Assembly: GCA_005883625.1 (NCBI GenBank)
Contig: VBDU01000071.1
Location: 89,439-153,438, forward strand
DNA length: 64,000 nucleotides
DNA from: Chloroflexota bacterium
GTDB lineage: Bacteria > Chloroflexota > Limnocylindria > P2-11E
Reading direction: 5' to 3'
Shown piece after piece: positions 2,908-64,000 of this stretch (position 1 is its first letter; each line of letters opens with the position of its first letter). The translations under genes and the position numbers were made by a program. The notes beneath the pieces were generated by a model. That model did no database searches, was not told the DNA's origin, and was given only the letters and a program-made list of their open reading frames with translations.

Positions 2908-2941
2908 GGCCTCGATTCTTGACCCAGCGGGTCGGAATTTA

Positions 2942-2960
2942 TTAGGCTCGCTTGATGTAA
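2942..2960. promoter_or_regulatory. candidate DtxR/IdeR-type operator in the divergent regulator / FTR1 intergenic region
   Basis: TTAGGCTCGCTTGATGTAA matches the DtxR consensus TTAGGTTAGCCTAACCTAA at 13 of 19 positions. It sits in a locally AT-rich 105-nt divergent intergenic region, and a TTGACC -35-like hexamer lies at 2919-2924. Confidence 0.35.
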
Positions 2961-3012
2961 GGGGCGCCTAAGGAGCCTCTCCCCGGGTGCCGAGTATCGC
3001 ACCGGAGGTCGC

Positions 3013-7618: not shown

Positions 7619-8655
7619 CCGCACCCGGGCGGGCGCACGTCGAGGACCCGAGCATCGAGGCGCTCGCATCCGCCGCCGGACGCACCGACGAGCTCGCCGT
7701 CCGTCGCCAGCTCTTCGGCTGGCGTGAGGTCATATCGACCGTCATCCCCGTCCTCCTCATCGTGTACTTCGCGCGGAACGTCGACTTCGGCCAGGCGCTC
7801 GCGACGATCCGCGGCTCGAATCCCCTCTGGGTGCTCACGGCGCTCGTCGTCTACTACATGTCGTTCCCGGTGCGGGCGATCCGCTGGGCGCGACTGCTCC
7901 GCGAAGGCGGCACGCGGATCGGCGGTGGCGATCTCCTCGAGATCCTCCTCCTCGGCTGGTTCGTCAACTGTCTCGTGCCCGCCAAGCTCGGCGACCTCTA
8001 CCGCAGCTACCTCGTGAAGCGGCGTTTCGGCGTGTCGCTCTCGCGGACCGTGGGCGTCGTGGTCGCGGAGCGACTCCTCGACCTGTTCGCGGTCTTCGGC
8101 CTTCTCATCGTGGTCGGCTACATCGCGTTCGGTCGCACGGTCCTTCCCGATCTCACCCTCATGTACGTCTCGGCCGTCGCGCTCGGCGTCCTCATCGTCG
8201 TCGGGTTCATCGCGCTCTACGCGGTCGCGCCGCGCATCGCCCATCTCTTCCCCGGCGAGGTGCGCCGCATCGGCCGTCTCTTCCGCGAGGGCGTCGTGCA
8301 CAGCTTCCGCGCGCTACCGGTCGCCGGTCCGCTGACGCTCCTCGTGTGGTTCTTCGAAGCGGGACGCCTCATGTGCGTGCTCGCCGCCCTCGGGCTCACC
8401 CTTCCACCGTCGCAGGTCGTGTTCGTCGCCGTCGCGTCATCGCTCCTCACGACCGTCCCGCTCACGCCCGCGGGCTTCGGCTTCGTAGAGATCGCGATGG
8501 TGTACGTCCTCAGCGAGGCGTTCGGGCTTCCGCAGCACGATGCCGTCGCGGTCGCGGTCCTCGACCGCACGGTGAGCGTGTTCTCGCTCGTCGCCGTCGG
8601 CGGCGTGCTCTATCTGCGCACGCAGCGCACGGAGCGGATCGGCGCGGGCCGGTGA
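7579..8655 (+). CDS. flippase-like / lysylphosphatidylglycerol-synthase-TM (UPF0104) family membrane protein
   Basis: Polytopic membrane protein with the family pattern, often linked to glycosyltransferase loci. Start ambiguous: GTG 7579 gives a 40-nt overlap, while CTG 7615 would make a CTGA overlap. Confidence 0.6.
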   Translation: MARTTEDRERRPLTAPGRAHVEDPSIEALASAAGRTDELAVRRQLFGWREVISTVIPVLLIVYFARNVDFGQALATIRGSNPLWVLTALVVYYMSFPVRAIRWARLLREGGTRIGGGDLLEILLLGWFVNCLVPAKLGDLYRSYLVKRRFGVSLSRTVGVVVAERLLDLFAVFGLLIVVGYIAFGRTVLPDLTLMYVSAVALGVLIVVGFIALYAVAPRIAHLFPGEVRRIGRLFREGVVHSFRALPVAGPLTLLVWFFEAGRLMCVLAALGLTLPPSQVVFVAVASSLLTTVPLTPAGFGFVEIAMVYVLSEAFGLPQHDAVAVAVLDRTVSVFSLVAVGGVLYLRTQRTERIGAGR

Positions 8656-10154: not shown

Positions 10155-11461
10155 CCGCGACGCGGCCCGCGCGCTCGTACCTGCCCATCGCCGCGCTCGC
10201 GCTCCTCGCGATCGCCCTCACCGCGGCGTACGCCGCCGCGCTCGGCCCCGACCCGGAGCCACGGCGCGACGACCAGGTCCAGTACCTCGCGCTCGCGCGG
10301 GGCCTGATCGAACGCGGCGAATTCACGCGGGCGGGAGCGGGCGAGCCGTTCGTGCCCGAGCCGCTGCGCTTTCCGGGCTATCCGCTGCTCCTTGCCGCCG
10401 TCTGCCGCACCGTCGGGTGCGAGCGCATCGTGGCCGTGCAGGCGGTGCTGCTCGCGCTCGCGGTGGTGCTGACCGTCCGCTTCGGCGCGCCGGCCCTGGG
10501 GGGGCGTCGCGCGCTCGTGGCCGGCGCTCTCGTCGCCGCCTATCCGACCTTCGCGTACTTCGCGGCGCTCACGCTCTCGGAGATCGCCGCGACCGTGCTC
10601 CTCGCCGGTGCCTGCGTCGCCTTCGTCGCGATGGCCGAACGCCCGTCGGCGCCCCGTGCGCTCGTCGCCGGCGCGCTGCTCGGCGCGCTCGCGCTCACGA
10701 GGCCGTTCTTCCTTCCGCTGCCGCTGCTGCTCGCGGCGCTCGCGCTCGGTTCGCGGCGTCGTTCCGCTCGTTCGCTCGCGCCGGCGCTCCTGCTGGCGAT
10801 CGCGGCCTTCGGCGCGGTCCTCGCGCCACAGGTCGCGTATTCCCTGACGAGCTTCGGCCGTCCGCTCGTCGGCAGTCTCGGAACGCAGCTCTGGCTGGGG
10901 TATTTCCAGGGCCTCGCGCCGGCGGACCTCGACGACTTCCAGCGCGCGGAGGCCGACGCCGGGCGCGCGGCCATCGCGCGCCTCGAGAACGCCGCCGACC
11001 GGCGGACGCAGGCCTACGCGTTCGTCGCGCTCGACGACGAACTGCGCGCCCGGGCGCTCGTGCTCATGGCGCACGATCCCCTCGGGTATCTCGCGCGCGG
11101 CGCGGTGCGTTCGGTCGTGCTGTGGGCCGGCGAGGTGCCGGCGCGTGACGCCGGTGCGACGCTCCCCGACGCGGTGCGGTCCGCGTGGCTCGCCCTCGAG
11201 CTCTCGTTCCTCGGCGTCGGCCTCGTGGGCTCGGTGCGGCTCGCGCGGCGCGGCGATCTTCGGGCGCTCGTGCCGCTCGCGCTCGTCCTCTTCGTGTGGG
11301 CGCTCTCGTTCCCGCTCTGGGCGGAGGGCCGCTTCTCGCTGCCGGCGAAACCGCTCCTCGCGATCGGCGTGGTCGCCGCGCTCAGCGCGCCGCGGCCCGG
11401 CGGACCTTCCGAAGCTCGTCCGGGCGGACGAGCGGCGCGAGGCGGAGCATCTCGCCCATAG
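10151..11461 (+). CDS. second ArnT/PMT-family GT-C glycosyltransferase
   Basis: TTGA overlap start. RRDDQVQYLALARGL is the first-loop motif. Polytopic. Confidence 0.6.
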   Translation: MTATRPARSYLPIAALALLAIALTAAYAAALGPDPEPRRDDQVQYLALARGLIERGEFTRAGAGEPFVPEPLRFPGYPLLLAAVCRTVGCERIVAVQAVLLALAVVLTVRFGAPALGGRRALVAGALVAAYPTFAYFAALTLSEIAATVLLAGACVAFVAMAERPSAPRALVAGALLGALALTRPFFLPLPLLLAALALGSRRRSARSLAPALLLAIAAFGAVLAPQVAYSLTSFGRPLVGSLGTQLWLGYFQGLAPADLDDFQRAEADAGRAAIARLENAADRRTQAYAFVALDDELRARALVLMAHDPLGYLARGAVRSVVLWAGEVPARDAGATLPDAVRSAWLALELSFLGVGLVGSVRLARRGDLRALVPLALVLFVWALSFPLWAEGRFSLPAKPLLAIGVVAALSAPRPGGPSEARPGGRAARGGASRP

Positions 11462-11476
11462 ACTCCTGCGCGGGAC

Positions 11477-12877
11477 GTGAGGACGATCACCGCGGCGTTC
11501 TTCGCGTCGCTGGCCGCCGCGGCCGCGGCGAGCGCGCCGGCATCGGATCCGGACCTCTTCTGGCATCTCGCGAGCGGCGCGTGGATGCTCGACCACGGAC
11601 GCCTCCTCGACCAGGACGTCTTCTCGTTCACGAGGACGGGCGCGACCTACCAGACCGGTCAGTGGCTCGGCGAGGTGGTGCTCGCGTTCGTCTACCGGCA
11701 GGCGAGCTGGCTGGGCGTCGACGTGCTGCGTGCGGTCCTCGTCGGTGCGGCGGCGTTCTTCGTGGCGCGCGCCACCGCCCGCGTGCAACCGCACATCGGC
11801 TGGGCGGCGGTCCCGATCCTCGCGACGATCCTCGTCTCGCGCACGATCTGGGGCGACCGGCCGCAGCTCTTCACGCTCGCGCTCGTCCCGGCGGTCTTCG
11901 ATCTTCTTCTCGCCGTCCGACTCGAGCGTCGTCCGCGGCTCCTCTGGATCCTGCCGCCGCTCTTCGTGCTCTGGGGAAACTTGCACGGCGCGTTCGCGAT
12001 CGGGCTCGTGCTGGTGACGGTGTTCGCGATCGAGGCGGTGCTCGTGCGCGAGAGCGCGCTGCGCCGGCCGCTCGTCCTCGCGCTCGCCGCCTCCGTCGTG
12101 GCGAGCGCGCTCAACCCGGCGGGAGTCCGCGCGCTCGCGGCCGCCTCCGCCTACGCGTCGACGTCAGGCGCCTACATCGTCGAGGAAGGACCGCTCGACG
12201 TGCTTACCGGTCCCGGCGTCGTGTTTGCCGCGATGCTCCTCGTAGCCCTGGGCATCGCGCTCACGCTTGGCCGCGAGGCCATCGCCCGGCGGATCGGCGC
12301 GCCGGTCCTCTGGCCCGGCCTGGTGATCGCGTTCGCGCTCCTCGGGCTCGCGATCCAACGCCAGGTCACGTTCGCGTGCGTCGTGATGACGCCGTTCCTC
12401 GCCGCGGGGATCCCGGCCGTCCTCGGCCGGCGCCCGCTCGCCCCCGTGGCGCTGCCTCGGGCGATGGTGGTCGCCGCGTGCGCGCTCTTCGCGCTCGCCG
12501 TCGCGACGGTCGCGGCGGTCGCGGCCCCGCGCGCTCCGGATCTCGCGGCATACCCCGCGGACGCGCTCGACGCCCTCGCGACCGCTCACGGAAACCTGCT
12601 GAACGAATATGACTGGGGCGGCTACCTCATCTTCGCGAGCCCGTCGCACCCCGTGTTCATCGACGGCCGCGGCGCGACGCTCTTCGTGCCCGGCGTCCTC
12701 GACGATTTCGAGGAGGCCGTGCGCCTGCGCCCCGCCTACCACGACGTCCTCGCGAAACACGGCATCGCGCTCGTGCTGCTGCGGCCGGATCGTCCCCTCA
12801 CGGTGGCGCTCCGTGAGGACGGCTGGCGCGCGCTCGCCGAGCGATCGGGGCGTTGGGTCCTCCTCGCGCGACCGTGA
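11477..12877 (+). CDS. polytopic membrane protein, GT-C-like; tandem paralog A
   Basis: 466 aa with DLFWHLASG, WGNLHGAF, EYDWGGYLIF and VFIDGRGATLFVP motifs shared with the next gene. Confidence 0.6.
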   Translation: MRTITAAFFASLAAAAAASAPASDPDLFWHLASGAWMLDHGRLLDQDVFSFTRTGATYQTGQWLGEVVLAFVYRQASWLGVDVLRAVLVGAAAFFVARATARVQPHIGWAAVPILATILVSRTIWGDRPQLFTLALVPAVFDLLLAVRLERRPRLLWILPPLFVLWGNLHGAFAIGLVLVTVFAIEAVLVRESALRRPLVLALAASVVASALNPAGVRALAAASAYASTSGAYIVEEGPLDVLTGPGVVFAAMLLVALGIALTLGREAIARRIGAPVLWPGLVIAFALLGLAIQRQVTFACVVMTPFLAAGIPAVLGRRPLAPVALPRAMVVAACALFALAVATVAAVAAPRAPDLAAYPADALDALATAHGNLLNEYDWGGYLIFASPSHPVFIDGRGATLFVPGVLDDFEEAVRLRPAYHDVLAKHGIALVLLRPDRPLTVALREDGWRALAERSGRWVLLARP

Positions 12878-14271
12878 GGCCTTCGCTCGTCGTCCCGCTG
12901 GCCGCCGGTGCCGTCTTCGGCGCGCTCGCGACGATCCAGGCCGTGAGCGACACCGACCTCTGGTGGCATCTCGCGACGGGACAGCAGACGCTCGCCCACG
13001 GCCTCGCCCGCACCGACGCGTTCGCCTGGACCATCGTGGGCCGTCCGGTCCTGCTCGACCAATGGCTCGGCGACGTCCTCATCGCGCTCGCGTACGCCGC
13101 GGGGTCGTGGCACGGGGTGATCGCGCTCCGCGCGCTCGCGGTCGCCCTGCTCGTGACGCTCGTCGTCGGCGCGGCGCTCGCGGAGCGTCCGGGCCGTCCC
13201 CTCGTGGCGCTCCTCGCGGCGCTGCCGGCGATCATGCTCTCGCGCTCCGCGTACGGCGACCGTCCGCAGCTCGAGGGGTACGTCCTCTTCGCCGCGCTGA
13301 TCTGGCTGCTCCGGGCCGGACAGAAGGGATCGTTGCCGGCGCTCGTCGCGACCGCCCCGCTCCTCGCCCTGTGGTCGAACCTCCACGGATCGAGCGCGCT
13401 CGGACTCGGCCTGATCCTCGTCGTGCTCGCGGAGCGCGCGCTGCGCGACGGCGCCTTCCGCCGCACCGCCGCGGTGCTCGCGGTGGCCGCGCTCCTCGCG
13501 ACGCTCCTCACGCCTGCGGGCTTCGGATCGTGGGCCTCGTCGGGCGGTCACTTCCTCGCGCCGCCGCGCTACATCGAGGAGGAGGGCGTGCCGAACCTGC
13601 GCAGCGTGCCGGGCCTGATCTTCGCCCTTGTCCTCGCGCTCGTCCTGGGGACCGCGTTCCTCGGTCGCGGCGCGCGCCGCGCGGAGGCGGCGCTCCTGCT
13701 GCCGGTCGTGTTCGTCTCGCTCACCGCGGCGCGCCACATGCCGTTCTTCGCGATCGCGGCGGCCCCGTATCTCGCGGCGGAGGGGCCGGCGGCCCTCGCG
13801 TGGCTCGCGCGGCTCGCCGGCATCTCGGCCCGCGTCCCCGACGCGTCGCCGGCGCGGTCGTCGTGGCAGGTCGACGTCGCGGCCGCCGCGCTCGCGGCGC
13901 TCGTGCTCTCGGTCGCCGCCGCCGCGGCGCCGGGCGATCCGGATGAGTCCTTCTATCCGCGTGGCGCTCTCGCGGCCCTGCCGCGCGGTCCGGGGTTGCT
14001 GAACGCCTACGACTGGGGCGGCTGGCTCATTTGGAACGCACCCGATACTCCCGTCTTCATCGACGGCCGGCTCTTCCCGTTCGTGCCGGACGGGCTCGCG
14101 GACTACCGGAGCATCGTCGGCCTGCATTCGGACTGGCGCGCGGTCCTCGACCGGCGCGGCGTGCGGGCGCTCCTGCTCCGTCCGACCGATGCCGCTGCGG
14201 TGCGCGCGCGCGAGACGGGGTGGACCGTGGTCGCGAGCGGACCGGATTTCGTGCTGCTCGCGCGACCTTAA
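12853..14271 (+). CDS. polytopic membrane protein, GT-C-like; tandem paralog B
   Basis: DLWWHLATG, WSNLHGSS, AYDWGGWLIW and VFIDGRLFPFVP motifs. Alternative start GTG 12874 gives a GTGA overlap. Confidence 0.6.
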   Translation: MGPPRATVRPSLVVPLAAGAVFGALATIQAVSDTDLWWHLATGQQTLAHGLARTDAFAWTIVGRPVLLDQWLGDVLIALAYAAGSWHGVIALRALAVALLVTLVVGAALAERPGRPLVALLAALPAIMLSRSAYGDRPQLEGYVLFAALIWLLRAGQKGSLPALVATAPLLALWSNLHGSSALGLGLILVVLAERALRDGAFRRTAAVLAVAALLATLLTPAGFGSWASSGGHFLAPPRYIEEEGVPNLRSVPGLIFALVLALVLGTAFLGRGARRAEAALLLPVVFVSLTAARHMPFFAIAAAPYLAAEGPAALAWLARLAGISARVPDASPARSSWQVDVAAAALAALVLSVAAAAAPGDPDESFYPRGALAALPRGPGLLNAYDWGGWLIWNAPDTPVFIDGRLFPFVPDGLADYRSIVGLHSDWRAVLDRRGVRALLLRPTDAAAVRARETGWTVVASGPDFVLLARP

Positions 14272-17015: not shown

Positions 17016-17584
17016 GGTCTCAGGGCGCTCCGCCCCCCGAGACCCCCCTCGCGTCGCCCCCCGAGACCCCCCGAACTCGCGAGCTCACGACGGACCAGGT
17101 CGCGGAATACCTCGAGGCCACCTGCGCGCTGGTCGAGGCCGAGCTGCGCGCGCTCGGCGACGACGCCTCCTGGCACTTCGATCCGCGGGAGTGGTGCGCG
17201 AATCAGGTGGTCGGTCACGTGGTGGAGGCCGAGAAGCGCGGCTTCGCCGGCCGGATCCGCGAGATCCTCGAGGGCAAGCGACGGACGGCCGCGTGGGACC
17301 AGGCCGCGGTCGCGAAGGAGCGCGACGATTGCGCGCGGATCGCGCAGAGCCTCTGGATGGAGTTCATGGGCGTACGCAACGGCTCACTCCAGCTCGTGCG
17401 CTCGCTGGGGCCCGGCGACCTCGGGAAGGGCATCGAGCACCCGAAGGCCGGGCGCCTGACCGTGCGCGATCTGCTCCACGAGTGGGTGCACCACGACCGC
17501 AACCACACCAAGCAGCTCCTCGCGCTCGCGCAGGAGCGCGTGTGGCCGCACATGGGGAACGCGCAGAGCTTCAAGGGCGAATAG
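17012..17584 (+). CDS. DinB/YfiT-family (DinB_2) putative metal-dependent enzyme
   Basis: GTGA overlap start. HEWVHHDRNHTKQL is the DinB_2 His triad. Confidence 0.65.
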   Translation: MRSQGAPPPETPLASPPETPRTRELTTDQVAEYLEATCALVEAELRALGDDASWHFDPREWCANQVVGHVVEAEKRGFAGRIREILEGKRRTAAWDQAAVAKERDDCARIAQSLWMEFMGVRNGSLQLVRSLGPGDLGKGIEHPKAGRLTVRDLLHEWVHHDRNHTKQLLALAQERVWPHMGNAQSFKGE

Positions 17585-18620
17585 CCCGCCGCGGTCCCAG
17601 GGCGAGCGCCAGCAGCCAGAGCGGCGCGAGCGGCACCCCCGCCTGCTGGACGAGGGCGACGACGACGCCGGATCCGACCCAGAGCGCCGTCGCGCGCGTG
17701 CCAGTCGCCGCCGCCGCGATCGCGGGATAGGCGACGACGCCGTCGTGCAGCAGCGCGTGCGGCGCGGTGAGGAGCGACCAGGGCGAAGCGTCGACCGTCC
17801 GGCTCCTCACGTCGCGAGAGCGGCGGACGATCACGACGGCCGCGATCGCGGCCGCCGCGAGCGTGAGGGCGGCGTTCAATACGGCGTCCGGGCCGAGCCC
17901 GCGCCGCGCGAGCGCGGGAAGCCCGAGCTCGCCGGGGCGGAGCTGCTCGGCGGCGAGCGAGACGAGGAGCGGATAGCGGGCCAGCCCGTCGACGCCCGCC
18001 ACCGCGAGCGAGAGCGTCGCGACGGCGACGAGCGCCGCGGCGAAGCCGGCCGCCGTCCCCCGACGGGTCAGCGCGACGATCGCGAAGAGGGGGAGGAGCT
18101 GCGGCCGGAGGGCCGTCGCGCCGAGGAGCGCGCCGGACCAGAACGGCGGCGCGCGCAGGGCTGCGGCGAGCGCGAGGAGGACGAACGGGGTCGTCTGACC
18201 CTCGACGAGGGCGATGAGCGAGGGCGGGGCGAGGAGCGCGAAGGGGAGCAGGCGGGCACGCTGCTCGGCGGCGGCCAGCGGCGCGAGGAGCGCGGCGGCG
18301 CCCAGGAGCGCGGCGACGCCGAGGGTGAGCATCGCCGCGTACGCAGGCGTGTACGGGAGCGCGCCGAGCGGCGCCATGAGCAGGGCGAGCGCGGGAACGT
18401 TCGGATCGAAGAGGAAGACCGTCCGCTCGGAAAGAATCGCGTGCTCCATGGCGAACTGCGCCGCGGGATCCGTCACCTCACCGCCGTGTCCGGTCGCGAC
18501 GAGGCGCGCGGTGGCGTAGAGCGCGATGAAGTCGTAGCCCGCTGGCTCGGCCGTGTGGACGGCGAACGCGACGAGCCACGCGGCGAGCGCGAGGACGAGC
18601 CCCCTCGCGACGCGCGTCAC
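17571..18620 (-). CDS. polytopic membrane protein, possible GT87/DUF2029-like glycosyltransferase
   Basis: About 349 aa with 9-10 TM helices. The GTG start overlaps the upstream SpoIID stop (GTGA on the minus strand). The family call is tentative. Confidence 0.45.
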   Translation of the reverse strand: MTRVARGLVLALAAWLVAFAVHTAEPAGYDFIALYATARLVATGHGGEVTDPAAQFAMEHAILSERTVFLFDPNVPALALLMAPLGALPYTPAYAAMLTLGVAALLGAAALLAPLAAAEQRARLLPFALLAPPSLIALVEGQTTPFVLLALAAALRAPPFWSGALLGATALRPQLLPLFAIVALTRRGTAAGFAAALVAVATLSLAVAGVDGLARYPLLVSLAAEQLRPGELGLPALARRGLGPDAVLNAALTLAAAAIAAVVIVRRSRDVRSRTVDASPWSLLTAPHALLHDGVVAYPAIAAAATGTRATALWVGSGVVVALVQQAGVPLAPLWLLALALGPRRAIRP

Positions 18621-20122
18621 GCGCCGCCGATGTTCGTGAGCGCGATGCCCAGGTAGTAGTGGGTGAGGATCTCGCTCGCCGAGCGGCCCTGGAGCGCCAT
18701 CCCCTGCGCACCCCATTGCGACATCCCGACGCCGTGGCCGTAGCCCTTGCCCGTGAACACGAACCGCGCCGGGAGGCGGTAGATCCAGCCGACGACGCGG
18801 ATCTCCGACGTCTCCCGATCGGGGTCGATGAGGCGCGTGTAGGCCGGCGCGTCGATCGTGGCGCCGAGCAGCTCCAGCGTGCGGAGCCGCTCGGCGTTCG
18901 TGTACGAGACGAACTCGGTCTCGTCGGCGGGACGGACCGCGACGGTGAAAAGCGTGCTGCGAAGCCCGAAGTAACGCCGCGAGGCATCCTTCCCGATGTC
19001 CCGCGATCCCCCGCTACCGACGATGCGCGCGCCTATGACGCGGCCGGTCTTGGACACGGACGTGATCTCGATCCGCTGCACGTCGCCGACGTTGAGTCCG
19101 CGGACCGCGAGGTAGTCGCGCAGCTGCGGCGCCGTGAGCTCGGTCGTCCACTCCCAGCTCGTGCGACCCCAGGACGATGTCTTCGCGACGTCGTCGGCGG
19201 GCGACGGGACGCTCCGGAGATACGGCAGCGCGCTCGCGTAGACGTTCTCCGAATCCTCCGTGATCCCGCCGGCGTTCGCCGAGTAAAGCGCCTCGATCGC
19301 GCGGCCCTGATACGTGGCGATCACGCCGGCCGTGCGCGCCACGGCCTTCACGGTCGAGGCCGCCTCGCCGCCGACGCCGTCGTACTCCTGGTCGCGCGTG
19401 TCGCCCTCGAGGTCGTACGCGCGGTGCCGCGCGAGGTGGGTGACGAGGTACGTTCGCGCGGCGATCGCCTGCGCCGCGAGCGCCTCCGGCTCCCAGGACG
19501 ACGGCTCCTCGGAGCCGACGACGGACGCGAGGTACTCGGACGTCGGGACCTCGTTCACGACGATCATGTCGCCTTCGTCGTCGAGCGCCAGGTCGAACGT
19601 GCCCCGGAACGCGCGGCCGTCGAAGGTGAGGAAGCCGTCGTCCGTGGCGAAGTGAAGGCCGACGACGCGGTCCGAGGCGATGAGCGGCGTGCCGACGTCG
19701 TCGCGGTCGTTCCGCAGTACCGCGAATTGGAAGGGCACGTTCACGAGCGCGCTCGGCTCTTCGCGCACCGCCTGCCGCGCCTCGCGGAAGAGCCGCGCGC
19801 GGCTCTGCCGCTCCTCAGGCGACAGATCGGTCACGTTCGTGTTCGTCGGCGGCAGATCGATGCCGCCGCCCTCGGCGAGGCGGCGGACGTTCGTTCTCGC
19901 GAGCGTCCGCAGGCCGCCCTGGTACACGACCTCGCCGCTCGCGCGGGTGACGGCGACCGTGCCGGTGGACGAGAGGATCGCGTAGCTCGTCCCGAGCCCC
20001 GCGATGTTCACGCGGACGGCTGCCGGCACCGCGTACCGCGGAGCGGCCGCCGCCTCTCGGGCGAGCGGGAGTCCGGCGATGAGGAGCAGGCCGGAGAGGA
20101 GGACGGGCAGCCGCCGCGTCAT
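18617..20122 (-). CDS. SpoIID/LytB-domain protein (peptidoglycan lytic transglycosylase / amidase enhancer)
   Basis: Signal peptide followed by the SpoIID domain (...YSANAGGITEDSENVY...GHGVGMSQWGAQGMA). Confidence 0.85.
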   Translation of the reverse strand: MTRRLPVLLSGLLLIAGLPLAREAAAAPRYAVPAAVRVNIAGLGTSYAILSSTGTVAVTRASGEVVYQGGLRTLARTNVRRLAEGGGIDLPPTNTNVTDLSPEERQSRARLFREARQAVREEPSALVNVPFQFAVLRNDRDDVGTPLIASDRVVGLHFATDDGFLTFDGRAFRGTFDLALDDEGDMIVVNEVPTSEYLASVVGSEEPSSWEPEALAAQAIAARTYLVTHLARHRAYDLEGDTRDQEYDGVGGEAASTVKAVARTAGVIATYQGRAIEALYSANAGGITEDSENVYASALPYLRSVPSPADDVAKTSSWGRTSWEWTTELTAPQLRDYLAVRGLNVGDVQRIEITSVSKTGRVIGARIVGSGGSRDIGKDASRRYFGLRSTLFTVAVRPADETEFVSYTNAERLRTLELLGATIDAPAYTRLIDPDRETSEIRVVGWIYRLPARFVFTGKGYGHGVGMSQWGAQGMALQGRSASEILTHYYLGIALTNIGGA

Positions 20123-54751: not shown

Positions 54752-55375
54752 ATGACAAGTCGATTTCCCTTCCGCGCCGCGCGCGGCCTCGCCCACGGCA
54801 TGGTCGGCGTCGTCGCGATCGTCCTCATCGTCGCGGGAGCCCGGATCGCGACCGCTTCCGTGTCGGCGATCAGCCCGACCGCGCAGGGCGCGGTCAGCGG
54901 TGGCGGCACGGTGACCAATCCATGCGGCGATGCGAGCTTCGGGCTGAACAGCGTGCGCCCGAACACCTTCCCCGGCGGGCAAGCGCTCGGACGGATCAAC
55001 TACGACCGGCTCGGGAGCTGCGCGAACGCGCACGTCAACGTCCCGGTGGTCTTGAAGTCGGTGACGGTCAGCTCCACGCCCACGCCGAACGGCACCGGCG
55101 GCGACGCGGCCATCATCGGCGACTGCACGACGGGGGACACGAATACCGCCTGTCCGACGGGGTCGCCGCCCGTCACGCACGTGCTCGTGTTCACGCGGGA
55201 CGTCGCCGATAGCGGAGCGGGCCAGGACCAATTCCAGATCCATTTCCTGAACTGCGTCGGCACGCCCACGCCGCCGACGTCGTTCGGCGCGACGCCCGAC
55301 AACTGCACCGAGCCGCTGCCGTTCGAGGGTGGGCTTCTGACCACCGGCAACATCCAGGTGCGCCTGCCACCGTGA
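54752..55375 (+). CDS. secreted Cys-containing Gly/Thr-rich hypothetical protein
   Basis: Signal peptide, 8 Cys, no family recognised. Confidence 0.5.
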   Translation: MTSRFPFRAARGLAHGMVGVVAIVLIVAGARIATASVSAISPTAQGAVSGGGTVTNPCGDASFGLNSVRPNTFPGGQALGRINYDRLGSCANAHVNVPVVLKSVTVSSTPTPNGTGGDAAIIGDCTTGDTNTACPTGSPPVTHVLVFTRDVADSGAGQDQFQIHFLNCVGTPTPPTSFGATPDNCTEPLPFEGGLLTTGNIQVRLPP

Positions 55376-55387
55376 CAAGGGAGTGAC

Positions 55388-55918
55388 GTGAGCCTGCTGA
55401 ACCAAAAGGCCCGGTCGCTCGGCGCGGCGCTCCTCGCCGTCGCCCTTCTCGTCGGCGCCCTGCCGACGACCGGTATCACGGCGGCCGCGCCGTCGCCGGC
55501 GGTCGGCACGACGCTGCTGGCGGGCACCACGCTGGTGACTGGCGCCGGCTCGGGCGTCTTCCCTGGCGGCGCCGTCTGGGGCGGCGTTGCGCTCAGCGGC
55601 GGGTCGTTCGGACAGGGTGTGGCGGTCTTCGGTGACGGCACCGCGAGGGGAGACTTCCAGATGATCCTCGCGGGGACGAACGTGCTCGGCGTCGCGACGA
55701 AGATCCTCGTGGTCGGCTGGGTGACGGCCGGGGCGGCGAACCCCGATGGGAGCGCGAGCATCAGTGGGACGTGCCGGGTGGACATGCAGGACGGCACGGT
55801 GCCGTCGACCGGTGTCCCCTTCACCGCGGCGATCACGACCGGCGGCCTCCAGCTGACCGTCGGGGCGACGGCCCTCCCGACCCTGGTGAAAAGCGCGGGC
55901 TGGATCTACCTCGAGTAG
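55388..55918 (+). CDS. secreted Gly/Thr/Ala-rich hypothetical protein
   Basis: Signal peptide LLAVALLVGALP, low-complexity G/T/A-rich mature region. Confidence 0.5.
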   Translation: MSLLNQKARSLGAALLAVALLVGALPTTGITAAAPSPAVGTTLLAGTTLVTGAGSGVFPGGAVWGGVALSGGSFGQGVAVFGDGTARGDFQMILAGTNVLGVATKILVVGWVTAGAANPDGSASISGTCRVDMQDGTVPSTGVPFTAAITTGGLQLTVGATALPTLVKSAGWIYLE

Positions 55919-55934
55919 CCGGCCGGGTCCGGCG

Positions 55935-58900
55935 TCACGGTGCGGTGGCGACGGACGAGCGTCGGCGTGACTTCCACACGCGGATCCCGAGCGGCAGCGT
56001 CGGCGCGAGGAGTAGCAGGCCCGCGACGCCTTCGGGGACGATCGTCGCGGTCATAAAGCGCGAGGGGAACGTCGAGGTGCCGGCGGAGAAGAACGAGTTG
56101 TTGCAGTTGTTTCCGGGGCTCGTGAAGGTGACGCTGAACTGAAGGCGGTCGTTCGTGACGAACGTCGCCGCCAGGCTCGCGAACGTGACCGCGATCGGCG
56201 TGACAGGGGTGTTCGGGGCGAGGCTGGTGGAGCCGGTCCCCAGCGACGTGGTCGTCGCGGTCGCGGCGTGATACCAGAGGAGCGCGAAGCTGACGTTGCA
56301 CGTCTTCGAGGTGCTGTTGTTCCACATGTAGACGCTGGTGCTCGTCGTGCCCGCTCCGAGGGCCATCCCGGTGGTGAACGTGTCGGAGCAGAAGGTGTCC
56401 TTGACGCCGGCCCCGCCGGGGAAGCTGAAGCTGCCCGCCGCCGTCGGCGCCGTCTGGTACATGTCGTACGCCCCGGCGCATGCGAACGTCGTCTTCGCAT
56501 CGGAGAGGTAGAAGGTGCTCGACGTGCCCGCGGACGCGTCGGCCGGAACCGCGTTCGCGAGGAACACGACGTTCACCGAGAGTCCGAGCGCGAACGCAAG
56601 GAGCGCCGCGGTGAGGCGCCGGCGGAGGCGTAGCCAGCCGAAGACGAGCAGCGCCAGCGGTACGGCGGTCCCGAGCACGGCGGGGACCGCGTAGTCGGTC
56701 GGCTCGCGTGCGCCCGACGCGCTCGCTGCCTGCACCGAGAGCGCGCCGACGGTGATGATGCCGGCCGCGAGGAGCACGAGGACCGACATGACGGCGATCC
56801 GGACGCCGAGCGAGCGCCTCGCGTGCGGCCGCCGGCGCGTCGGCAGCTCCCACGGCAGGAGGCGCGCCAACCGGAAGGGATCGAGCGCTTCCGTGACGCG
56901 CCCGGACTTCGGCGTCCTGACCCAGCCGCCCTCGTCTCGTTCGAAGAGCGCCTTGAGCGAGGCGTAGGCCTGGAAGGGCACGAGCAGCCAGGACAGGCCG
57001 ACGAACGACAGGATCCCCGCGGCGTCGCGGCGCAGCGAGCCCTCGAGCAGTCATGAGCGGCAGGGCCAGGGCGTTGGACACGATGAGCGACCAGCCGAAG
57101 ACTTCTCCCCACATGGGCAGCTTCTGGTGGAACACGAAGGTGCCGAGCAGCCAGGTGACCGTCCCGAAGCTAAAGAGCACCGACTGCAGGTAGTAGGGGG
57201 CGTAAAAGCAGAACTCGAGCTTCTCCTTGAAGCTCAGATTGGGCGAGCTGATCACCTGGAAGAAGTACTTCTTCACGTTGTAGGTGTGGCCCTCGGCCCA
57301 GCGCATGCGCTGCTTGATGAGCCGCCGGACCGTGCTCACGCACTCCGCGGGGGCCTGGATGTAGGGGGTGTAGAGCACCTTGTACCCCGCCAGGTAGAGG
57401 CGAATGGTCAGCTCCCAGTCCTCGGTGATGGACGTGCTCCAGCCGAGCTTGCGCAAGACGTCGGCGCGGATCATGTAGACCGAGCCCGAGATCATCTTCA
57501 TGGCGCCGAAGAGCTCCTGCCCGGTGCGCTCGAGCACGTAGCTGCCGGCGAACTCGGCACGCACGCCCTTGGTGATCCAGTTCTCGCTGGCGTTGAGCAT
57601 GTGCCACTGGTAGCCCTGCACTGCCGCCAGGCGGTCGCCGTTCTGCGGCACCCCGCTCGCGCTCGACGCGTGGCGCTCGGCGCCCTTTGGCCTTGCCGCC
57701 AGGCGGCCGAAGTAGTCGAGGAAATGCCAGATCGCGTCCGCCGGCGGCACGAAGTCCGCGTCGAAGATGAGCACGTACTCGGTCCGTGGGTTCATCCGCC
57801 CGAGCGCTTCCTGCAGCGCGCCGCCCTTGAAGCCCTTGCGGCTCTCGCGGTGGAGGACGCGGACGCGCGGGTGGTCATCCCAGCGCTTCAGGATCTCGAC
57901 CGTCTCGTCGGTCGAGTCGTCGGCGACGATGACCTCGTAGTTCTCGTAGTCGAACGAGGTGCAGGCCTCCAACAGCCTGTCGACGACGCGGGCCTCGTTG
58001 TAGAGCGCCACCTGCACGGAGATGAATGGCTGGCGTTCGGCCGGCAGGCGCAGCTCGCCGAGGCGCTGCCAGGGATCGGTCGCCATGACCGAGCCCCCCT
58101 CGTCGAGCTTGTCGCCACGCAGGGTGCGGTATCCCGAGCGGTGCTGGCTGCCTGAGTGCGCGCCCTTCGCTTCGCCGCTCGCCCTCAGTCCATACCCCGC
58201 CTCATCGCCGTCGGCATTCCCAGCGCGGTCCGCGCGCTGGCCCCGGTTCTTGCGCGGGAGGAGCCGCACCGAGTCGCCGAAGAGCGCGAGCAACAGCACG
58301 CTCGCGCTCGTGACGTAGTACTTCAGCGCGTACACGAAAAACAGGAAGCCGCAGACGAGCGCGAGCAGCGAGAGGCCAAAGCGCGGTTGGAGCGCGTCGC
58401 GGAACAGGAACGCGAAGCCGCCGAGCCAGACGATCCCGATGACCGCTATGAGCACGTTGGTCTCGAGGCGGCTCGGGATGTCTCCCAGCGCGACAACGGG
58501 CGCCGGCGCGCCCGAGCCCCAGGCGCGCGCAAGGGTCTCGTCCACCTCATCGGCAGTCGCGGTCACCACACTGAGCTTGAGTCGCGTCAGGCGCTGCGCC
58601 TCGGCGAGCGCCGCGAGGTCGAGCGGATCGGCCATCGCGAGGACGCCGTCACCGCCGGTCGCCGCTGTCACGACCACGCGCATGCCGCGTGCGATGTCCA
58701 CGGGCAGCAAGCGCGCGGCGTCGCGCTCGACCGGATCGACCAGGCGCGGGGAAGAGATGCGCGACTCGGTCGGGTCGATCGGCGCGGCGATCTCGGGGTA
58801 CGGGGCCAGCGACACGAGCGGCGTGCCGCTCGCGCGAGCGAGGACGTCGGCGAGCTCGGCCTGTGCGACGAGACCGAGGCGGGTCAGTGTGGCGCCGAGC

Positions 58901-59388
58901 GATTCGCCGGCGCCCGCTCTCGCCAGAGCGTCGTCGACCTGCGCCTCGGTCAGCGCGCGGCTGCCGAGCAGGAGCTCGATGACGCGGCGCCAGTCGGGCC
59001 GAAGTCCGCTCAGCCGCCGGCGAGTGACCAGGGCCGCACCGGTCGCATGGACCGCGCGCCGCAGCTCGTCAGCGGGCGCGTCCTTTTGCACGTAGGTGGT
59101 GGCGCCAGCCGCGAGCGCGAGATCGCGCGAACCGGGGTCGACGGTGAGGAACACGATCCCGATCTCGGGGAGCTCGCTCGCAAGGATGCGCGCGACGTCG
59201 AGGCCCGACAGCCCGGGCATGATGTTGTCGAGGAGGATGAGATCTGGTCGGAGCTTCCGGGCCAGTGCGAGCGCGCTCGGGCCATCGGTCGCTTCGCCGA
59301 CAACGCTGATCGCCGGGTCCGCATCGAGGATCTTGCGGACGCCTTCGCGGACCAGACGCTGATCGTCTGCGATGAGGACGCGCGTCAC
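55935..59388 (-). CDS. REC + MshEN-like (GspE-N-type) + GT2 processive synthase (BcsA/cellulose-synthase-like; D,D,D,QxxRW); apparent frameshift near 57020-57055 joining two reading frames (possible pseudogene or sequencing error)
   Basis: GTG 59388 with AAGGAG 11 nt upstream. Receiver LIADDQ...LILLDNIMPG...T...K. Tandem MshEN-like helices (LLGSRALTEAQVDDALARAG / LTRLGLVAQAELADVLARAS). GT2 motifs DDSTDET, FDADF and QRMRWAEG. A gating-loop-like WVRTPK and further TMs continue only in the other frame (track ORF 55935..56981). The original frame carries on as Arg-rich junk to 55906. Confidence 0.6.
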
Positions 59389-59553
59389 TGCCCGGCTCGC
59401 TCCTTGTATGTCGCCCGCTTGGCGGGCGTGCGAGCAGTGTTCGTTCTGTGCGCTTCCGGCAGGTCCCGCCATCGGGGGATTCCCGGGCCGAATTCCCACC
59501 GTCCTGACAGGGCGGTGCGCTATTGAGACGCGCCCGCTACCGGGCCCCGGCCG

Positions 59554-60534
59554 CTACGGCCGCATGCGCTCCCGCGGGACGACGACGCGCACCGTCGTAC
59601 CGGCGCCTGGCCGGCTCTGGACCTTGATGACGCCGCCCAGGAACGCGATCCGCTCGCGCATCACGAGGAGTCCGAATGCGCCCGCTCCTGGGCGCACCTC
59701 GCCCCACTGCTCGATCGCGAAGCCGCGGCCGTCATCCGCGACGACGATCTCGAGCATGTCCGGCGTCGTGAGGAGCGCGAGCCGGACCTCGTGCGCGGCG
59801 GCGTGGCGCCGCACGTTGCGGAGCGCCTCGAGCGCGACCGCGTAGAGCGAGGACTCCGCGTCGGGCACGAGCGGGCCCGGGTCGTCCATCGCCTCTTCCA
59901 GCGCCCACCCCGCCGTCGCCGCGATCTCGCGCGCCGCGACGGACAGCGCCGCGACGAGCCCGAGGTCATCGAGCGTCGCCGGGCGCACGGCGCCAAGGAT
60001 GTCGCGCGTCGCGCGGATCGCGCGACGCAGGAGCGCCACCGCCTGTGCGATCTGCTCGTTCTCGACCCCCGCGCTTTGCAGCTGGCCGTGCGCCGAGACG
60101 AGGATCGGCGCGAGCTCGTCGTGGAGGTCGCGCGCGAGCGTGCGTCGCAGCTCCTCCTCCTGTGTGAGGAGCTGACCGGCGAACCGCTTGAGGTCGCCGA
60201 AGAGCGTGAGGCGATCGATAGAGAATGCCGCCTGCTCCGCGAGGATGCGCAGGAAGGAGACGGCCTCGTCGCCCGGATGACCGGACTGGCGGTTCACGTT
60301 GAGCACGCCGATCGTCTTCGCCCCGACGAGGAGGGGAAGACAGATCGCGAACTCCACGTCCTTGGTGTACGGCGTGCGCAGCTCCGTGGCGGCGGGGCCC
60401 TCCAGGATGATCGGGGCCTTCCGCTCGAGCGCCTGCCACGAGATCGACGACCCCACCGGGACGCGCGTTCCCTCGAGGCGGTCGCCGCGGCCGGTGCGGA
60501 CCACGAGCGCGTCGCCGGGTGGATCGACGGTCAT
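59554..60534 (-). CDS. GAF-domain HisKA_3 sensor histidine kinase
   Basis: Short GAF (...ICLPLLVGAKTIGVLNV...), H-box ARDLHDELAP, N-box EALRNVRRHA and G1 DDGRGF. Confidence 0.8.
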   Translation of the reverse strand: MTVDPPGDALVVRTGRGDRLEGTRVPVGSSISWQALERKAPIILEGPAATELRTPYTKDVEFAICLPLLVGAKTIGVLNVNRQSGHPGDEAVSFLRILAEQAAFSIDRLTLFGDLKRFAGQLLTQEEELRRTLARDLHDELAPILVSAHGQLQSAGVENEQIAQAVALLRRAIRATRDILGAVRPATLDDLGLVAALSVAAREIAATAGWALEEAMDDPGPLVPDAESSLYAVALEALRNVRRHAAAHEVRLALLTTPDMLEIVVADDGRGFAIEQWGEVRPGAGAFGLLVMRERIAFLGGVIKVQSRPGAGTTVRVVVPRERMRP

Positions 60535-60676: not shown

Positions 60677-61324
60677 TCAGGCGGTGGCGGATTCGACGAG
60701 GCCGTTGCGGACCGCGTAGATCGCGGCCTGCGTGCGATCGGAGACGTTGAGCTTCTCGAGGATCGCGGCGACGTGGCTCTTCACCGTCTCCGGCGAGAGG
60801 ACGAGCCGCTCTGCGATCTCACGGTTCGAGAGACCCTCCGCGACGAGGGCGAGGATCTCGCGCTCGCGCTTGGTGAGGTTCTTCGCCGCCGGCGGCACGG
60901 GCCCCGTCGGCTTCATCTCGCTGAGCATGCCCTTGAGCATCTGCGATTCGATGAACGCGCCCCCGGAGGCGACCTGACGGATCGCATCCACGAGCTCGTC
61001 CTTCGACACGTCCTTCAAGAGATATCCGGCGGCGCCGGCGCGGACCGCTTCCTTGAGATACGCGGGGTTGTCGTGCATCGTGACCATGATCACGGCGGTG
61101 CGCGGCCGCTCCTCTTTTATCCGTTTCGTGGCCTCGAGCCCGTCCATGTCGGGCATCCGAACGTCCATGAGCACGACGTCGGGAAGCTCTTTGCGCGCGA
61201 TCTCGAGGGCCTCGCGCCCGGTGCGCGCTTCGCCCACGAGCGTGAGGTCGTCGTTCTTGGCGAGCATCGCGGCGATGCCCTGCCGCACGAGCTCGTGGTC
61301 GTCGACGAGCATGACCCGTGTCAT
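60677..61324 (-). CDS. NarL/FixJ-family response regulator
   Basis: MLVDDHELV...VVLMDVRMPDMDG, then a LuxR HTH. Confidence 0.9.
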   Translation of the reverse strand: MTRVMLVDDHELVRQGIAAMLAKNDDLTLVGEARTGREALEIARKELPDVVLMDVRMPDMDGLEATKRIKEERPRTAVIMVTMHDNPAYLKEAVRAGAAGYLLKDVSKDELVDAIRQVASGGAFIESQMLKGMLSEMKPTGPVPPAAKNLTKREREILALVAEGLSNREIAERLVLSPETVKSHVAAILEKLNVSDRTQAAIYAVRNGLVESATA

Positions 61325-61394
61325 CGCCTGCGGATTCTACGGTCGGATGTCGGGGGACTCCGTTCCCGGCTGCTGTCCCTCGCGAGATCGCGCA

Positions 61395-61919: not shown

Positions 61920-61964
61920 CTGGAGACCGATGCCCCGTAACCCCCCAGAAACGACTGTTACCGC

Positions 61965-64000
61965 GTGCCGACGCGCATCTTGATCGCCGACGACCACCTC
62001 GCGGTCCGCGAGGGCCTGCGTTCGCTCCTCGAGCCGGAATCGGACTTCGAGATCATCGGCGAGGCCGCGGACGGGAACGAGGCCGCCCAGAAGGCTCTCG
62101 ACCTCAAGCCGGACCTCATCGTCCTCGACAACTCGATGCCCGGTATGACCGGCCTCGAGGTCGCACGGATCCTTCGCGCGAACCTTCCTCAGACCAAGAT
62201 CGTCTTCCTCACGCTCGATCCAGGCATCCGCGATCTCGCGCTCGCGACCGGCGCGGTCGCGCACGTCGCGAAGGACGTCCCGCCGCAGGAGATCATGCGC
62301 GTGGTCCGCGCGGCTGCGGGCCTGCGACCGCAGCGTGCGACGAGCGGCAACGGTCACGCCGTCCCGTCCCAGACGAAGCTCGCCGAGCTCGTCGTCGCGG
62401 AGCACCTCCTCACGACCCAGCAGGTGCAGGACGTCGAGGGCGCCCGCGAGAAGCGACAGACGCTCGCGAACGCGCTGCTTCGCTCCGGCCTCGTTCCCGA
62501 GGAGAAGCTCGCCGACGTCTTCGCCCGCGCGAGCGGCCAGCGGCTCATGTCCCTCCGTCCCGAAGCAGCGTCGAGCGAGGCACGCGGGCGCACTCACGCG
62601 AAGGACCCGATCGACCCGACGGTCGCGCGGCAGCTCCCGCGTCGCTTCTGCGAGCAACGCGCGATCGTGCTCGTCGAGCTGAAGCGCGCCCAGGCGACCC
62701 TCGCGATGGCGGATCCATTCGATGAGACCACGGCGAACGAGGTCCGCGACATGCTCGGCGGCGTCGAGCTCAGCGTCGTCACCGCGACGGTGAGCGACGT
62801 CCGCGACGCGATCCAGCGCTCGCAGGCCCCCGCCGTCGTGCCGCTGGTGGCGGTCGCACCGACGATGCACATCCGTCGCCACCGCGCCTTCCCGCTCGTC
62901 GCGGCGATCGCCGCCGCGTTCCTTCTCTTCGCGACGGGGATCGGCGTCGTCCTCACGCAGGGGACCGCGACCGACGCCCGCGCGAATCTCACGATCTTCC
63001 AGGGCGCGGTCGAGATCCGTCACGGCGCGGGGCCGTTCGTCGCGGCGTCCACGAACGATCTCCTCCGCCAGGGTGACACGGTCCGGACGTCGGCGAACGC
63101 GAACGCCGCGCTCGCGTTCTTCGAGAGCTCGATCGTCGTCCTTGAGCCGGGTACGGAGGTCGAGGTCGTCTCGCTGCGTCAGATCGCGAGCGGTCGCGAC
63201 ATCGACGTGGTCATGCGCCAGACGAGCGGCATGACCTGGCACGTGGTCTCGCATCCGCTCGGCGCGGGCGCGCGCTACGCCGTCCTCACGCCGTCGTCGA
63301 CGAGCACGGTCCAGGGCACTGCCTTCCAGGTCGCTGTCGATGCGCGCGGCATGACCACGGTCACGACGACGGACGGGGTCGTGCACACGCAGGGCGCGGA
63401 CGGCGCGAGCGCAGCGCCGGTCGCCGTGAACGCGCAGCAGACGACGACGGTCACCGGTGCCGGACCCGCCACGCCTCAAATGGCGAAGATGCGGACGGTG
63501 ACGTTCGTCCTCGATGCCGGCCGCGACGCGGTCGTCGTGAACGCGGCCGGTGAGTCCGCCGGCGTGAGGGATAACGAGATCGTCCGCTACATCCCGGGAT
63601 CGACCGTTGCCCGGCAAGGCGGCAAGGTCGTCGTGAACCTCCCAGGCAACGAGGACGGTGCCTTCGCGACGATCGTCGCGCCGGCAGGCAGCGCGACGCA
63701 GGTCCAGATCGCGGCCGACCTCAAGTCGCCGGACGGTGGTCCCGTGAGCGCGGTCACCGATCAGCGTTCGATCGATAACGGAGTCGCGCGCACCGGTGTC
63801 AGCGTGATCGGGAACACCGTGGTCCTCACCAGTGCCACGACGATCACCGCGCAGCCCCTCGCCGTGAATCCTCCGCCGGCGCCGACACCGTTCAACCCGC
63901 TCGGCGTGGTACAGAGCTCGCCCCTCGCGATCGGTCCTGCGGGTCCAGCCGGTGTCGCGGGCGTGCCTGGCGCGCCGGGTCCACAGGGTCCGCCTGGTCC
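61965..64000 (+). CDS. REC + MshEN-like + TM + FecR-like + beta-rich region + collagen-like Gly-X-Y repeat protein; 3' end beyond the window
   Basis: GTG 61965. N-terminal 260 aa paralogous to the GT2 fusion (ILIADDHLAVREGL...LIVLDNSMPGMTGLE...; LSVVTATVSDVRDAIQRS). TM AFPLVAAIAAAFLLFATGIGVVL. FecR-like TIFQGAVEIRHGAGPF...LRQGDTVRTSANANAALAFFESSIVVLEPGTEV. The sequence ends GPAGPAGVAGVPGAPGPQGPPG. Confidence 0.7.
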   Translation, partial: MPTRILIADDHLAVREGLRSLLEPESDFEIIGEAADGNEAAQKALDLKPDLIVLDNSMPGMTGLEVARILRANLPQTKIVFLTLDPGIRDLALATGAVAHVAKDVPPQEIMRVVRAAAGLRPQRATSGNGHAVPSQTKLAELVVAEHLLTTQQVQDVEGAREKRQTLANALLRSGLVPEEKLADVFARASGQRLMSLRPEAASSEARGRTHAKDPIDPTVARQLPRRFCEQRAIVLVELKRAQATLAMADPFDETTANEVRDMLGGVELSVVTATVSDVRDAIQRSQAPAVVPLVAVAPTMHIRRHRAFPLVAAIAAAFLLFATGIGVVLTQGTATDARANLTIFQGAVEIRHGAGPFVAASTNDLLRQGDTVRTSANANAALAFFESSIVVLEPGTEVEVVSLRQIASGRDIDVVMRQTSGMTWHVVSHPLGAGARYAVLTPSSTSTVQGTAFQVAVDARGMTTVTTTDGVVHTQGADGASAAPVAVNAQQTTTVTGAGPATPQMAKMRTVTFVLDAGRDAVVVNAAGESAGVRDNEIVRYIPGSTVARQGGKVVVNLPGNEDGAFATIVAPAGSATQVQIAADLKSPDGGPVSAVTDQRSIDNGVARTGVSVIGNTVVLTSATTITAQPLAVNPPPAPTPFNPLGVVQSSPLAIGPAGPAGVAGVPGAPGPQGPPG

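Follow-up and report, generated by a model that had tools for sequence, protein, structure and literature searches.

A VPEG-type C-terminal tail on a polysaccharide synthase of Limnocylindria, and an exosortase-family gene beside it in related loci

The synthase gene and its tail

The window studied here is a 64,000-nucleotide stretch of contig VBDU01000071.1, from a Chloroflexota bacterium of the class Limnocylindria. On its minus strand lies a gene for a putative polysaccharide synthase with a processive family-2 glycosyltransferase (GT2) domain, and our subject is the short C-terminal tail with which this gene ends, here named VPEG-CTERM. A sequence-only reading of the window had described the tail as PEP-CTERM-like: a VPEG motif, a transmembrane (TM) helix and an RRR cluster at the end of a Thr/Ser-rich domain. 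From the N- to the C-terminus of the product, the parts of the gene are as follows.

59050-59379, minus strand: REC (receiver) domain at the synthase N-terminus (Pfam PF00072, E 8e-21)
58522-58734, minus strand: MshEN domain (Pfam PF05157, E 1.1e-10, 41.7 bits vs a cutoff of 23.1)
57085-58029, minus strand: processive GT2 domain, PgaC/cellulose-synthase-like (Pfam Glyco_tranf_2_3, Glyco_trans_2_3 and Glycos_transf_2, E 1e-18 to 1e-19)
57050-57051, minus strand: 14-nt deletion site (ACCTSGCSGGSGTS, codons N-L-A-G-V), which puts the 3TM-ectodomain-tail part out of frame with the GT2 part
56547-56789, minus strand: conserved 3-TM module linking synthase and ectodomain (TM1 56733-56789, TM2 56631-56690, TM3 56547-56615)
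56046-56543, minus strand: Thr/Ser/Ala-rich, predicted extracellular beta-sandwich domain of 166 aa, which precedes the tail in every case
56028-56045, minus strand: signature T-I-V-P-E-G, predicted at the outer membrane face, with V-P-E as a near-invariant core
55983-56027, minus strand: hydrophobic stretch VAGLLLLAPTLPLGI, 15 residues with two conserved prolines (family consensus GLLLLAPxLP)
55959-55982, minus strand: basic cluster RVWKSRRR, predicted cytoplasmic (family consensus RWWKRRRP)
55935-55958, minus strand: lineage-specific C-terminal extension SSVATAP plus stop; most relatives end directly after RRRP

The minus-strand open reading frame (ORF) at 55935-56981 (348 aa) has the C-terminus TIVPEGVAGLLLLAPTLPLGIRVWKSRRRSSVATAP. 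Its last letters before the stop, ...RFMTATIVPEGVAGLLLLAPTLPLGIRVWKSRRRSSVATAP, also given as …SRFMTATIVPEGVAGLLLLAPTLPLGIRVWKSRRRSSVATAP, were identical to those of the sequence-only reading. The hydrophobic helix GVAGLLLLAPTLPLGI is followed by RVWKSRRR, and the protein ends 7 residues past the Arg cluster. The 166 aa before the tail contained 18.7% Thr, 13.3% Ser, 14.5% Ala and 7.8% Gly, with 4 Cys and 4 N-x-S/T sequons, in agreement with the earlier description of a Thr/Ser/Gly-rich region with Cys and N-x-S/T sites. The tail occurred once in the window, on the frameshifted synthase gene, and we found no second tail gene downstream of the synthase in the window.

The minus frame from 59499 to ~57052 encodes the receiver domain, the MshEN domain and the processive GT2. 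All Pfam matches were above the gathering score (Response_reg 74.7 bits, Glyco_tranf_2_3 69.0, Glyco_trans_2_3 67.4, Glycos_transf_2 66.4), and the best NCBIfam match of the GT2 part was PgaC_IcaA, far under its cutoff. The REC, MshEN and GT2 architecture was also found in the related loci L008, L045, L046 and L047. Long stop-free frames are common in the window because of its ~70% G + C content, and about half of the 1197-aa ORF at 55906-59499 is an artefact of stop-free read-through in the wrong frame.

The synthase is split into two frames in the window because 14 nt are missing at 57050/57051, compared with two metagenome contigs. The contigs were 98.6% (L011, over 11.3 kb) and 97.5% (L013) identical to the window, with an intact junction in both, and in L013 one open frame of 1267 aa spans the whole protein. 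Homologues continue across the junction as …SNALALPLMNLAGVLLEGSLRRDA…. The intact unit is one polypeptide: REC, MshEN, GT2, three TM helices, extracellular beta-sandwich domain(s) and tail. The deletion is either a pseudogenising mutation or an assembly error. A related contig of a metagenome-assembled genome (MAG) at NCBI ends 14 nt before the 348-aa ORF.

According to the sequence-only reading, the downstream frame could be a separate gene with its own signal peptide, MSVLVLLAAGIITVGALSVQA-AS. The 348-aa product would then be an independent secreted protein with a C-terminal anchor, in line with the separation of the two frames in the window and with the GTG at 56981 that opens the ORF. However, this ORF opens with the last part of the GT2 fold (…PFQAYASLKALFERDEGGWVRTPKSG…), the relatives at 97.5-98.6% identity read through the 14-nt gap, and the supposed signal peptide is TM1 of the 3-TM module within one long protein, followed by two more helices. 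For the family this explanation is refuted, and we give it almost no credence.

Basic residues flank the cytoplasmic sides of the 3-TM module (RRRPHARR before TM1, RLRRR between TM2 and TM3), and because of the positive-inside rule these helices are predicted to carry the ectodomain to the outside. TM2, …YAVPAVLGTAVPLALLVFGWLRLRRR, resembles a degenerate copy of the tail IVPEGVAGLLLLAPTLPLGIRVWKSRRR, and the tail hidden Markov model (HMM) gave no match there. The resemblance hints that the membrane module may have arisen by duplication of tail-like hairpins.

The tail family and its gene neighbour

We gathered ~75 tail copies from ~50 related soil-metagenome and MAG loci (Limnocylindria, Chloroflexota), by pattern scans of genome and metagenome contigs, protein look-ups and the tail HMM. 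Soil MAGs carrying the names “Chloroflexi bacterium” and “Candidatus Limnocylindria bacterium” were the closest named sources. The tail profile scored 49-79 bits in every related locus, and the same terminal beta-domain preceded each of the ~75 tails. Across the family the consensus is …PSKLTVATIVPEGVAGLLLLAPALPFGARWWKRRRP before the stop, the tail peptide being also written …KLTVATIVPEGVAGLLLLAPALPFGARWWKRRRP. The pattern is T-[IV]-V-P-E-G, then GLLLLAPxLP and RWWKRRR, with the helix consensus GLLLLAPALPFGA directly before RWWKRRR. One contig, L007 (DASPWX010000049.1), was labelled “Candidatus Bathyarchaeia archaeon” and had its tail gene, sortase, methyltransferase and PTPS_related genes in common with the Chloroflexi contigs; its tail gene was near-identical to that of L003, and the contig is probably misbinned.

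In 59 unique sequences, V, P, E, G-L-L, A-P, the second P and the first R were at least 90% conserved, as was the A-T preceding V-P-E. Most ectodomain columns were only 20-60% conserved, the tail being the most conserved part of the compared C-terminal regions. The residue after E was G in most copies and A, T, H, D, N or W in others, and P was never conserved at this position. P-E was kept in divergent and internal copies too. The tail that the sequence-only reading had picked out is real and strongly conserved, and chance would be far from explaining such a motif.

The related loci usually had two to three tandem tail genes: a synthase of 1500-2060 aa, followed by zero to two paralogues, commonly one or two, each made up of three TM helices, ectodomains and tail. 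Up to three tandem paralogues were found per locus and six tail copies in one MAG. Each tandem gene starts within an overlap with the preceding stop. In the +1 frame, RWWKRRRP and its stop read VEAEAAV, with a GGAGG and a GTGA overlap, and the codons of the basic cluster double as the ribosome-binding site and the GTG start of the next gene.

In the relatives, the last tail-bearing gene was immediately followed by one for a polytopic membrane protein of ~215 aa, whose match began ~21 nt before the stop of the tail gene. Stops and starts overlapped throughout the tail genes and this gene. The protein matched the exosortase/archaeosortase signature NCBIfam TIGR04178 (cutoff 23 bits) with 29.5-33 bits for the Limnocylindria type and 34-36 bits for divergent types. 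Moreover, 225 database homologues bore the name “exosortase/archaeosortase family protein”, given by NCBI and JGI, many with a precomputed PF09721 match. Cys108 (YISWNC108VGWQ), Asn149/Arg152 (LN149xxR152I) and His172 (H172DYG) were invariant in 18 sequences, down to 42% identity, and the same Cys/Arg/His residues were found in the sortases of L045 and L046. Cys/Arg/His is the triad proposed for the exosortase family.

The sortase-like protein scored under the cutoff of every curated subfamily (XrtA-Y, ArtA-F, CrtC and others). Bits against cutoff were 28-34/102.75 for XrtG, 38/170 for XrtX, 18-29/100 for ArtC and 26/225 for CrtC, and XrtG was the best or second-best subfamily match of the Limnocylindria type. 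From its sequence, we assign the protein to the exosortase/archaeosortase superfamily, outside all curated subfamilies.

Downstream sequence of at least 150 nt was available for 36 loci; 23 of these had the sortase gene after the last detected tail, and 9 of the 13 loci without a detected sortase were contigs ending inside the next tail gene. Reciprocally, all four loci reached from the sortase side had an upstream gene ending in the tail. The pairing persisted where the sortase was as little as 42% identical. It was also found in two deeply divergent lineages, with synthases followed by the sortase homologues of 34-36 bits, and on contigs of 53-55% G + C, where helix-hairpin-helix-like repeats and one TM helix take the place of the 3-TM module in the synthase. 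Other conserved neighbours were a methyltransferase, a GT4 and two convergent PTPS_related/YfhO-like membrane proteins; the related loci are polysaccharide loci. The MAG SMAG_U4585 had three contigs with six tails and two sortase genes. An exosortase-family gene and further tail-bearing proteins had been set as tests of the idea in the sequence-only reading, and both are present in the relatives, as the gene directly after the last tail gene and as tandem paralogues.

A processing signal or a permanent helix

Since enzyme and target genes adjoin in the relatives, our interpretation is that a dedicated exosortase-family enzyme recognizes the tail and cleaves the protein there. With moderate confidence, and on comparative grounds, we favour the view that it is a new dedicated exosortase-type signal whose substrate would be the synthase itself.

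Haft (bioRxiv 10.1101/2023.06.07.544157) has set out criteria for such signals, and the tail agrees with criteria 1, 3, 4 and 5. It lies at the extreme C-terminus (some distant relatives having internal copies besides), it has signature residues in V, P and E, and it has a hydrophobic helix with a basic cluster behind it, for which the criterion asks 2-5 basic residues. Homologues without the signal (criterion 8) were found in P0023 and in the ~285-aa representatives described below. Consecutive genes for enzyme and target were found in the relatives, not in the window, and neither many unrelated cargo proteins nor signal peptides were seen. In dedicated systems, according to the same author, enzyme and target are the products of consecutive genes, and their adjacency replaces the criteria of multiple occurrences, unrelated cargo and tail-less homologues.

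By the favoured reading, with a topology that follows the positive-inside rule, the TM helix ahead of the ectodomain would thread this domain to the outside. The membrane would then be crossed again by the tail helix, with the Arg cluster holding its end in the cytoplasm, and V-P-E-G would come to lie at the outer face, beside the Cys/Arg/His site of the sortase. By analogy with ArtA/PGF-CTERM and XrtA/PEP-CTERM, we infer that the sortase cuts at V-P-E-G, removing the helix and the basic cluster, and that the new C-terminus is probably transferred to an acceptor, which could be lipid, wall or polysaccharide. The ectodomain would remain tethered through its N-terminal helices.

Several findings weigh against this reading, and some of them would suit a permanent, uncleaved TM helix, a C-terminal anchor or hairpin arm, the neighbouring enzyme then working on another substrate or serving polymer export in some other way. 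In P0207, P0210, P0214, P0215, P0230 and P0247 the motif is internal, with a second helix and a further ectodomain after it. VPE is changed to VSE, VRE or VPD in a few paralogue copies, some of which lack the Pro. No unrelated cargo was found by a tail-only profile against 5.8 billion proteins, by pattern scans of the contigs or by the tail HMM on all six-frame ORFs, the profile matching only fragments of the same ectodomain family. The substrates have no N-terminal signal peptide, being polytopic synthases that start in the cytoplasm, or 3-TM paralogues. In the window lineage and in L009 the tail is conserved although no sortase gene adjoins it. Pro and Glu are, besides, common helix N-cap residues. 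Apart from the question of a permanent helix, the tail matched none of the curated sorting-signal models, the overlapping start of the next gene may account for part of the RWWKRRRP conservation, and the helices of the AlphaFold model had low confidence (predicted local distance difference test scores of 47-69).

Against a permanent helix, no role beyond the processing of tripartite C-terminal signals has been proposed for exosortase-family proteins, and the tail-bearing genes are the only candidate substrates in these operons. Their translational coupling is strict and kept across deep divergence, and P-E at the membrane boundary is conserved far above the rest of the protein. The tail also persists where the 3-TM module has been replaced, which argues that it is not a mere part of a fixed bundle of four helices. 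We regard a permanent helix, the strongest rival of the favoured reading, as rather unlikely. A related candidate, a 4-helix bundle with the tail helix packed on the 3-TM module, was set aside, weakened because one lineage has this module replaced; the AlphaFold helices were of low confidence.

In distant relatives, the internal VPE-helix-RRKR motif occurred up to two times per polypeptide, each time followed by a helix and a beta-domain. What Limnocylindria encode as tandem overlapping genes is fused in these proteins, and an exosortase-family gene still followed in both contexts examined (P0247 in L045 and P0226 in L046). As a tentative extension of the favoured reading, to which we give a fairly low probability, the exosortase-family enzyme might cut the synthase and also the internal sites of the fused relatives, turning one precursor into several membrane-tethered ectodomains whose C-termini would be re-attached to lipid, wall or nascent polymer. 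If true, sortase-type processing would reach beyond secreted cargo, to the synthase machinery and to internal sites like those of a polyprotein.

The ectodomain also occurs without the tail. The complete homologue P0023 adjoins a Peptidase_S26 gene, in a signal-peptidase (SipW-like) operon, and many ~285-aa representative proteins matched the ectodomain profile only as far as the tail. On a Logan contig (SRR26457610, locus L044), the gene at 2274-3161 encodes a complete tail-less homologue with an N-terminal hydrophobic segment followed by AFSGATANPSNTFSA. Three paralogues of ~191 aa precede it, and the third of these matched Peptidase_S26 (signal peptidase) faintly. The N-terminus of the homologue resembles the signal peptides of TasA/camelysin-type proteins, which SipW cleaves, and this locus suggests that the ectodomain is employed in another secretion context.

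In the window itself we found no sortase gene: the profile of the cognate sortase, run against a six-frame translation of the 64 kb, gave a best E of 0.29. The polytopic ORFs were FTR1, LPG_synthase_TM, PMT_2, an amino-acid permease and GT87 by Pfam and NCBIfam, plus three ORFs without a family, and the earlier statement that the window has no exosortase gene holds. Processing in the window organism would accordingly depend on a sortase gene in another part of the genome. Because related MAGs carry several such loci, it is plausible that a sortase from a different locus of the source genome acts in trans.

The tail could also be a relic in the window genome, with a pseudogene synthase, lost paralogue and sortase genes, and no current function. 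This would fit the 14-nt deletion, the missing sortase gene and the aberrant end of the protein. The end, RRRSSVATAP before the stop, resembles the ends of sortase-like proteins (..SSVATVPS before the stop in L016, L035 and L022). It may be a scar left when the paralogue and sortase genes were deleted, or the likeness, over ~7 common residues, may be accidental. The downstream contexts of the two kinds of end differed. Against a relic stand the close relatives: L011, L013 and L019 have an intact gene with the same tail, the core being unchanged in these and in L010, and because of this the deletion may be a strain variant or an assembly error. The several loci per MAG, with a sortase that may act in trans, and the shortness of the scar resemblance count against it too. 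We consider a relic possible but doubtful.

Upstream of the synthase, and convergent on it from the other side, the following genes were found.

60677-61336, minus strand: NarL/MctR-type response regulator, upstream of the kinase (NCBIfam RespRegMctR, E 1.5e-58)
59554-60534, minus strand: NarX/UhpB-type histidine kinase, directly upstream of the synthase (NCBIfam matches)
54752-55375 and 55388-55918, plus strand: two small secreted Thr/Gly-rich proteins, convergent on the synthase gene

The context of histidine kinase, response regulator and synthase was shared by the window lineage and L009. The kinase is probably the phosphodonor for the REC domain of the synthase. The product of 54752-55375 had a sub-threshold match to a post-COAP-1 domain (E 0.01, 16 bits vs a cutoff of 40), and both small secreted-protein genes were conserved beside the tail gene in L010 and L019. 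Farther away, the ORF at 61941-63998 (plus strand), running off the window end, encodes a receiver domain followed by collagen-like Gly-X-Y repeats (…GPAGPAGVAGVPGAPGPQGPPG), an unusual combination. A cluster of polytopic envelope enzymes lies at 7579-14271 (plus strand) and 17571-18716 (minus strand), with an LPG_synthase_TM protein, a PMT_2-like GT-C protein, a GT87 protein, and two proteins without a family, of 8 and 5 TM helices, that have similar C-termini (…LLARP).

Relation to known systems and meaning

The tail shares with the PEP-CTERM/exosortase systems of Gram-negative exopolysaccharide producers (XrtA, EpsH; TIGR02595, PF07589, PF09721) the tripartite signal of V-P-E, helix and Arg cluster, the preceding region rich in Thr, Ser and Asn, the polysaccharide locus, and an enzyme of the same superfamily with Cys/Arg/His. 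These likenesses would support a canonical PEP-CTERM on the secreted cargo of an XrtA-type exosortase, and the PEP-CTERM-like layout proposed by the sequence-only reading is supported by the comparison with relatives. Membership in PEP-CTERM is effectively refuted, and we hold it to be very improbable. The residue after V-P-E is Gly, not Pro, and TIGR02595 and PF07589 gave no match at E<=10, be it to the 36-aa tail alone, to the 202-aa stretch of domain and tail, to the complete ORF or to six tails of other lineages, although the HMMER filters may hide very weak matches. The run of a TIGR02595-type model that had been proposed as a check was in this way negative. The cognate enzyme is under all curated Xrt cutoffs, a signal peptide is lacking, and there is one cargo family here in place of many unrelated ones, the median in PEP-CTERM species being eight per genome. 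A polytopic GT2 synthase and its paralogues serve as the predicted substrates, whereas PEP-CTERM cargo comprises many unrelated signal-peptide proteins. The enzyme, of ~215 aa, is shorter than the EpsH proteins with at least eight helices described by Haft, and the host belongs to the Chloroflexota, unlike the Gram-negative PEP-CTERM hosts.

We liken the system more closely to dedicated systems of the XrtG/Firmicu-CTERM type than to PEP-CTERM. In the Firmicutes, the target, exosortase G and two XrtG-associated glycosyltransferases adjoin, a small dedicated system in which, as here, target, exosortase-family gene and GT2 stand side by side. PTPS_related membrane proteins were conserved neighbours of the Limnocylindria loci, and we take this domain to accompany XrtG systems as well. 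The differences are nevertheless clear. The sortase scored 28-34 bits vs the 102.75 of XrtG, the glycosyltransferase 29 vs the 364 of TIGR03111, and target and glycosyltransferase are one polypeptide here. None of the sorting-domain models matched the tails: PGF/PEF-CTERM, Firmicu-CTERM and the other sorting models of NCBIfam and Pfam gave no match at E<=10, and only one divergent copy showed a sub-threshold TM-plus-Arg similarity to MYXO-CTERM and LPXTG anchors.

The mechanistic model for the VPEG tail comes from Archaeosortase A and the PGF-CTERM of the Haloferax volcanii S-layer glycoprotein, in which removal of the C-terminal helix and attachment of a lipid both depend on the sortase. Within the superfamily, direct evidence exists for Archaeosortase A alone. 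Unlike the VPEG system, it is archaeal, recognizes a PGF motif and has an S-layer substrate with a signal peptide and many targets per genome. With the PgaC/IcaA and BcsA-like GT2 synthases, the VPEG synthase shares a catalytic GT2 among TM helices and cytoplasmic regulatory modules. To our knowledge, no described PgaC- or BcsA-like synthase bears a beta-sandwich domain outside the cell with a sortase-type signal at its end, and literature searches for such a system in Chloroflexi found no description. As far as the sequences tell, what sets the system apart is the VPEG signature, the polytopic GT2 synthase as the predicted substrate, the multi-module make-up of the substrates, in tandem or fused, and its host phylum, the Chloroflexota. 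The whole case is comparative genomics of uncultured organisms, with an incomplete copy in the window.

Exosortases are widespread, yet their chemistry in bacteria and their physiological acceptors are still largely inferred, one reason being that typical systems have dozens of heterogeneous targets. The VPEG family is a compact pairing in one operon, of a small exosortase-family enzyme and one to three defined substrates, in which the sortase is physically tied to a polysaccharide synthase that is itself fused to the target. What an exosortase cuts, and to what it attaches the protein, is here directly testable with two or three genes. For annotation, the family defines a class of sorting signal and a sortase subfamily that the current curated models leave unnamed. 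It extends exosortase-type systems to the Chloroflexota (Limnocylindria), an abundant uncultured soil lineage, and suggests how Limnocylindria may organise an exopolysaccharide machine with REC and MshEN regulatory domains.

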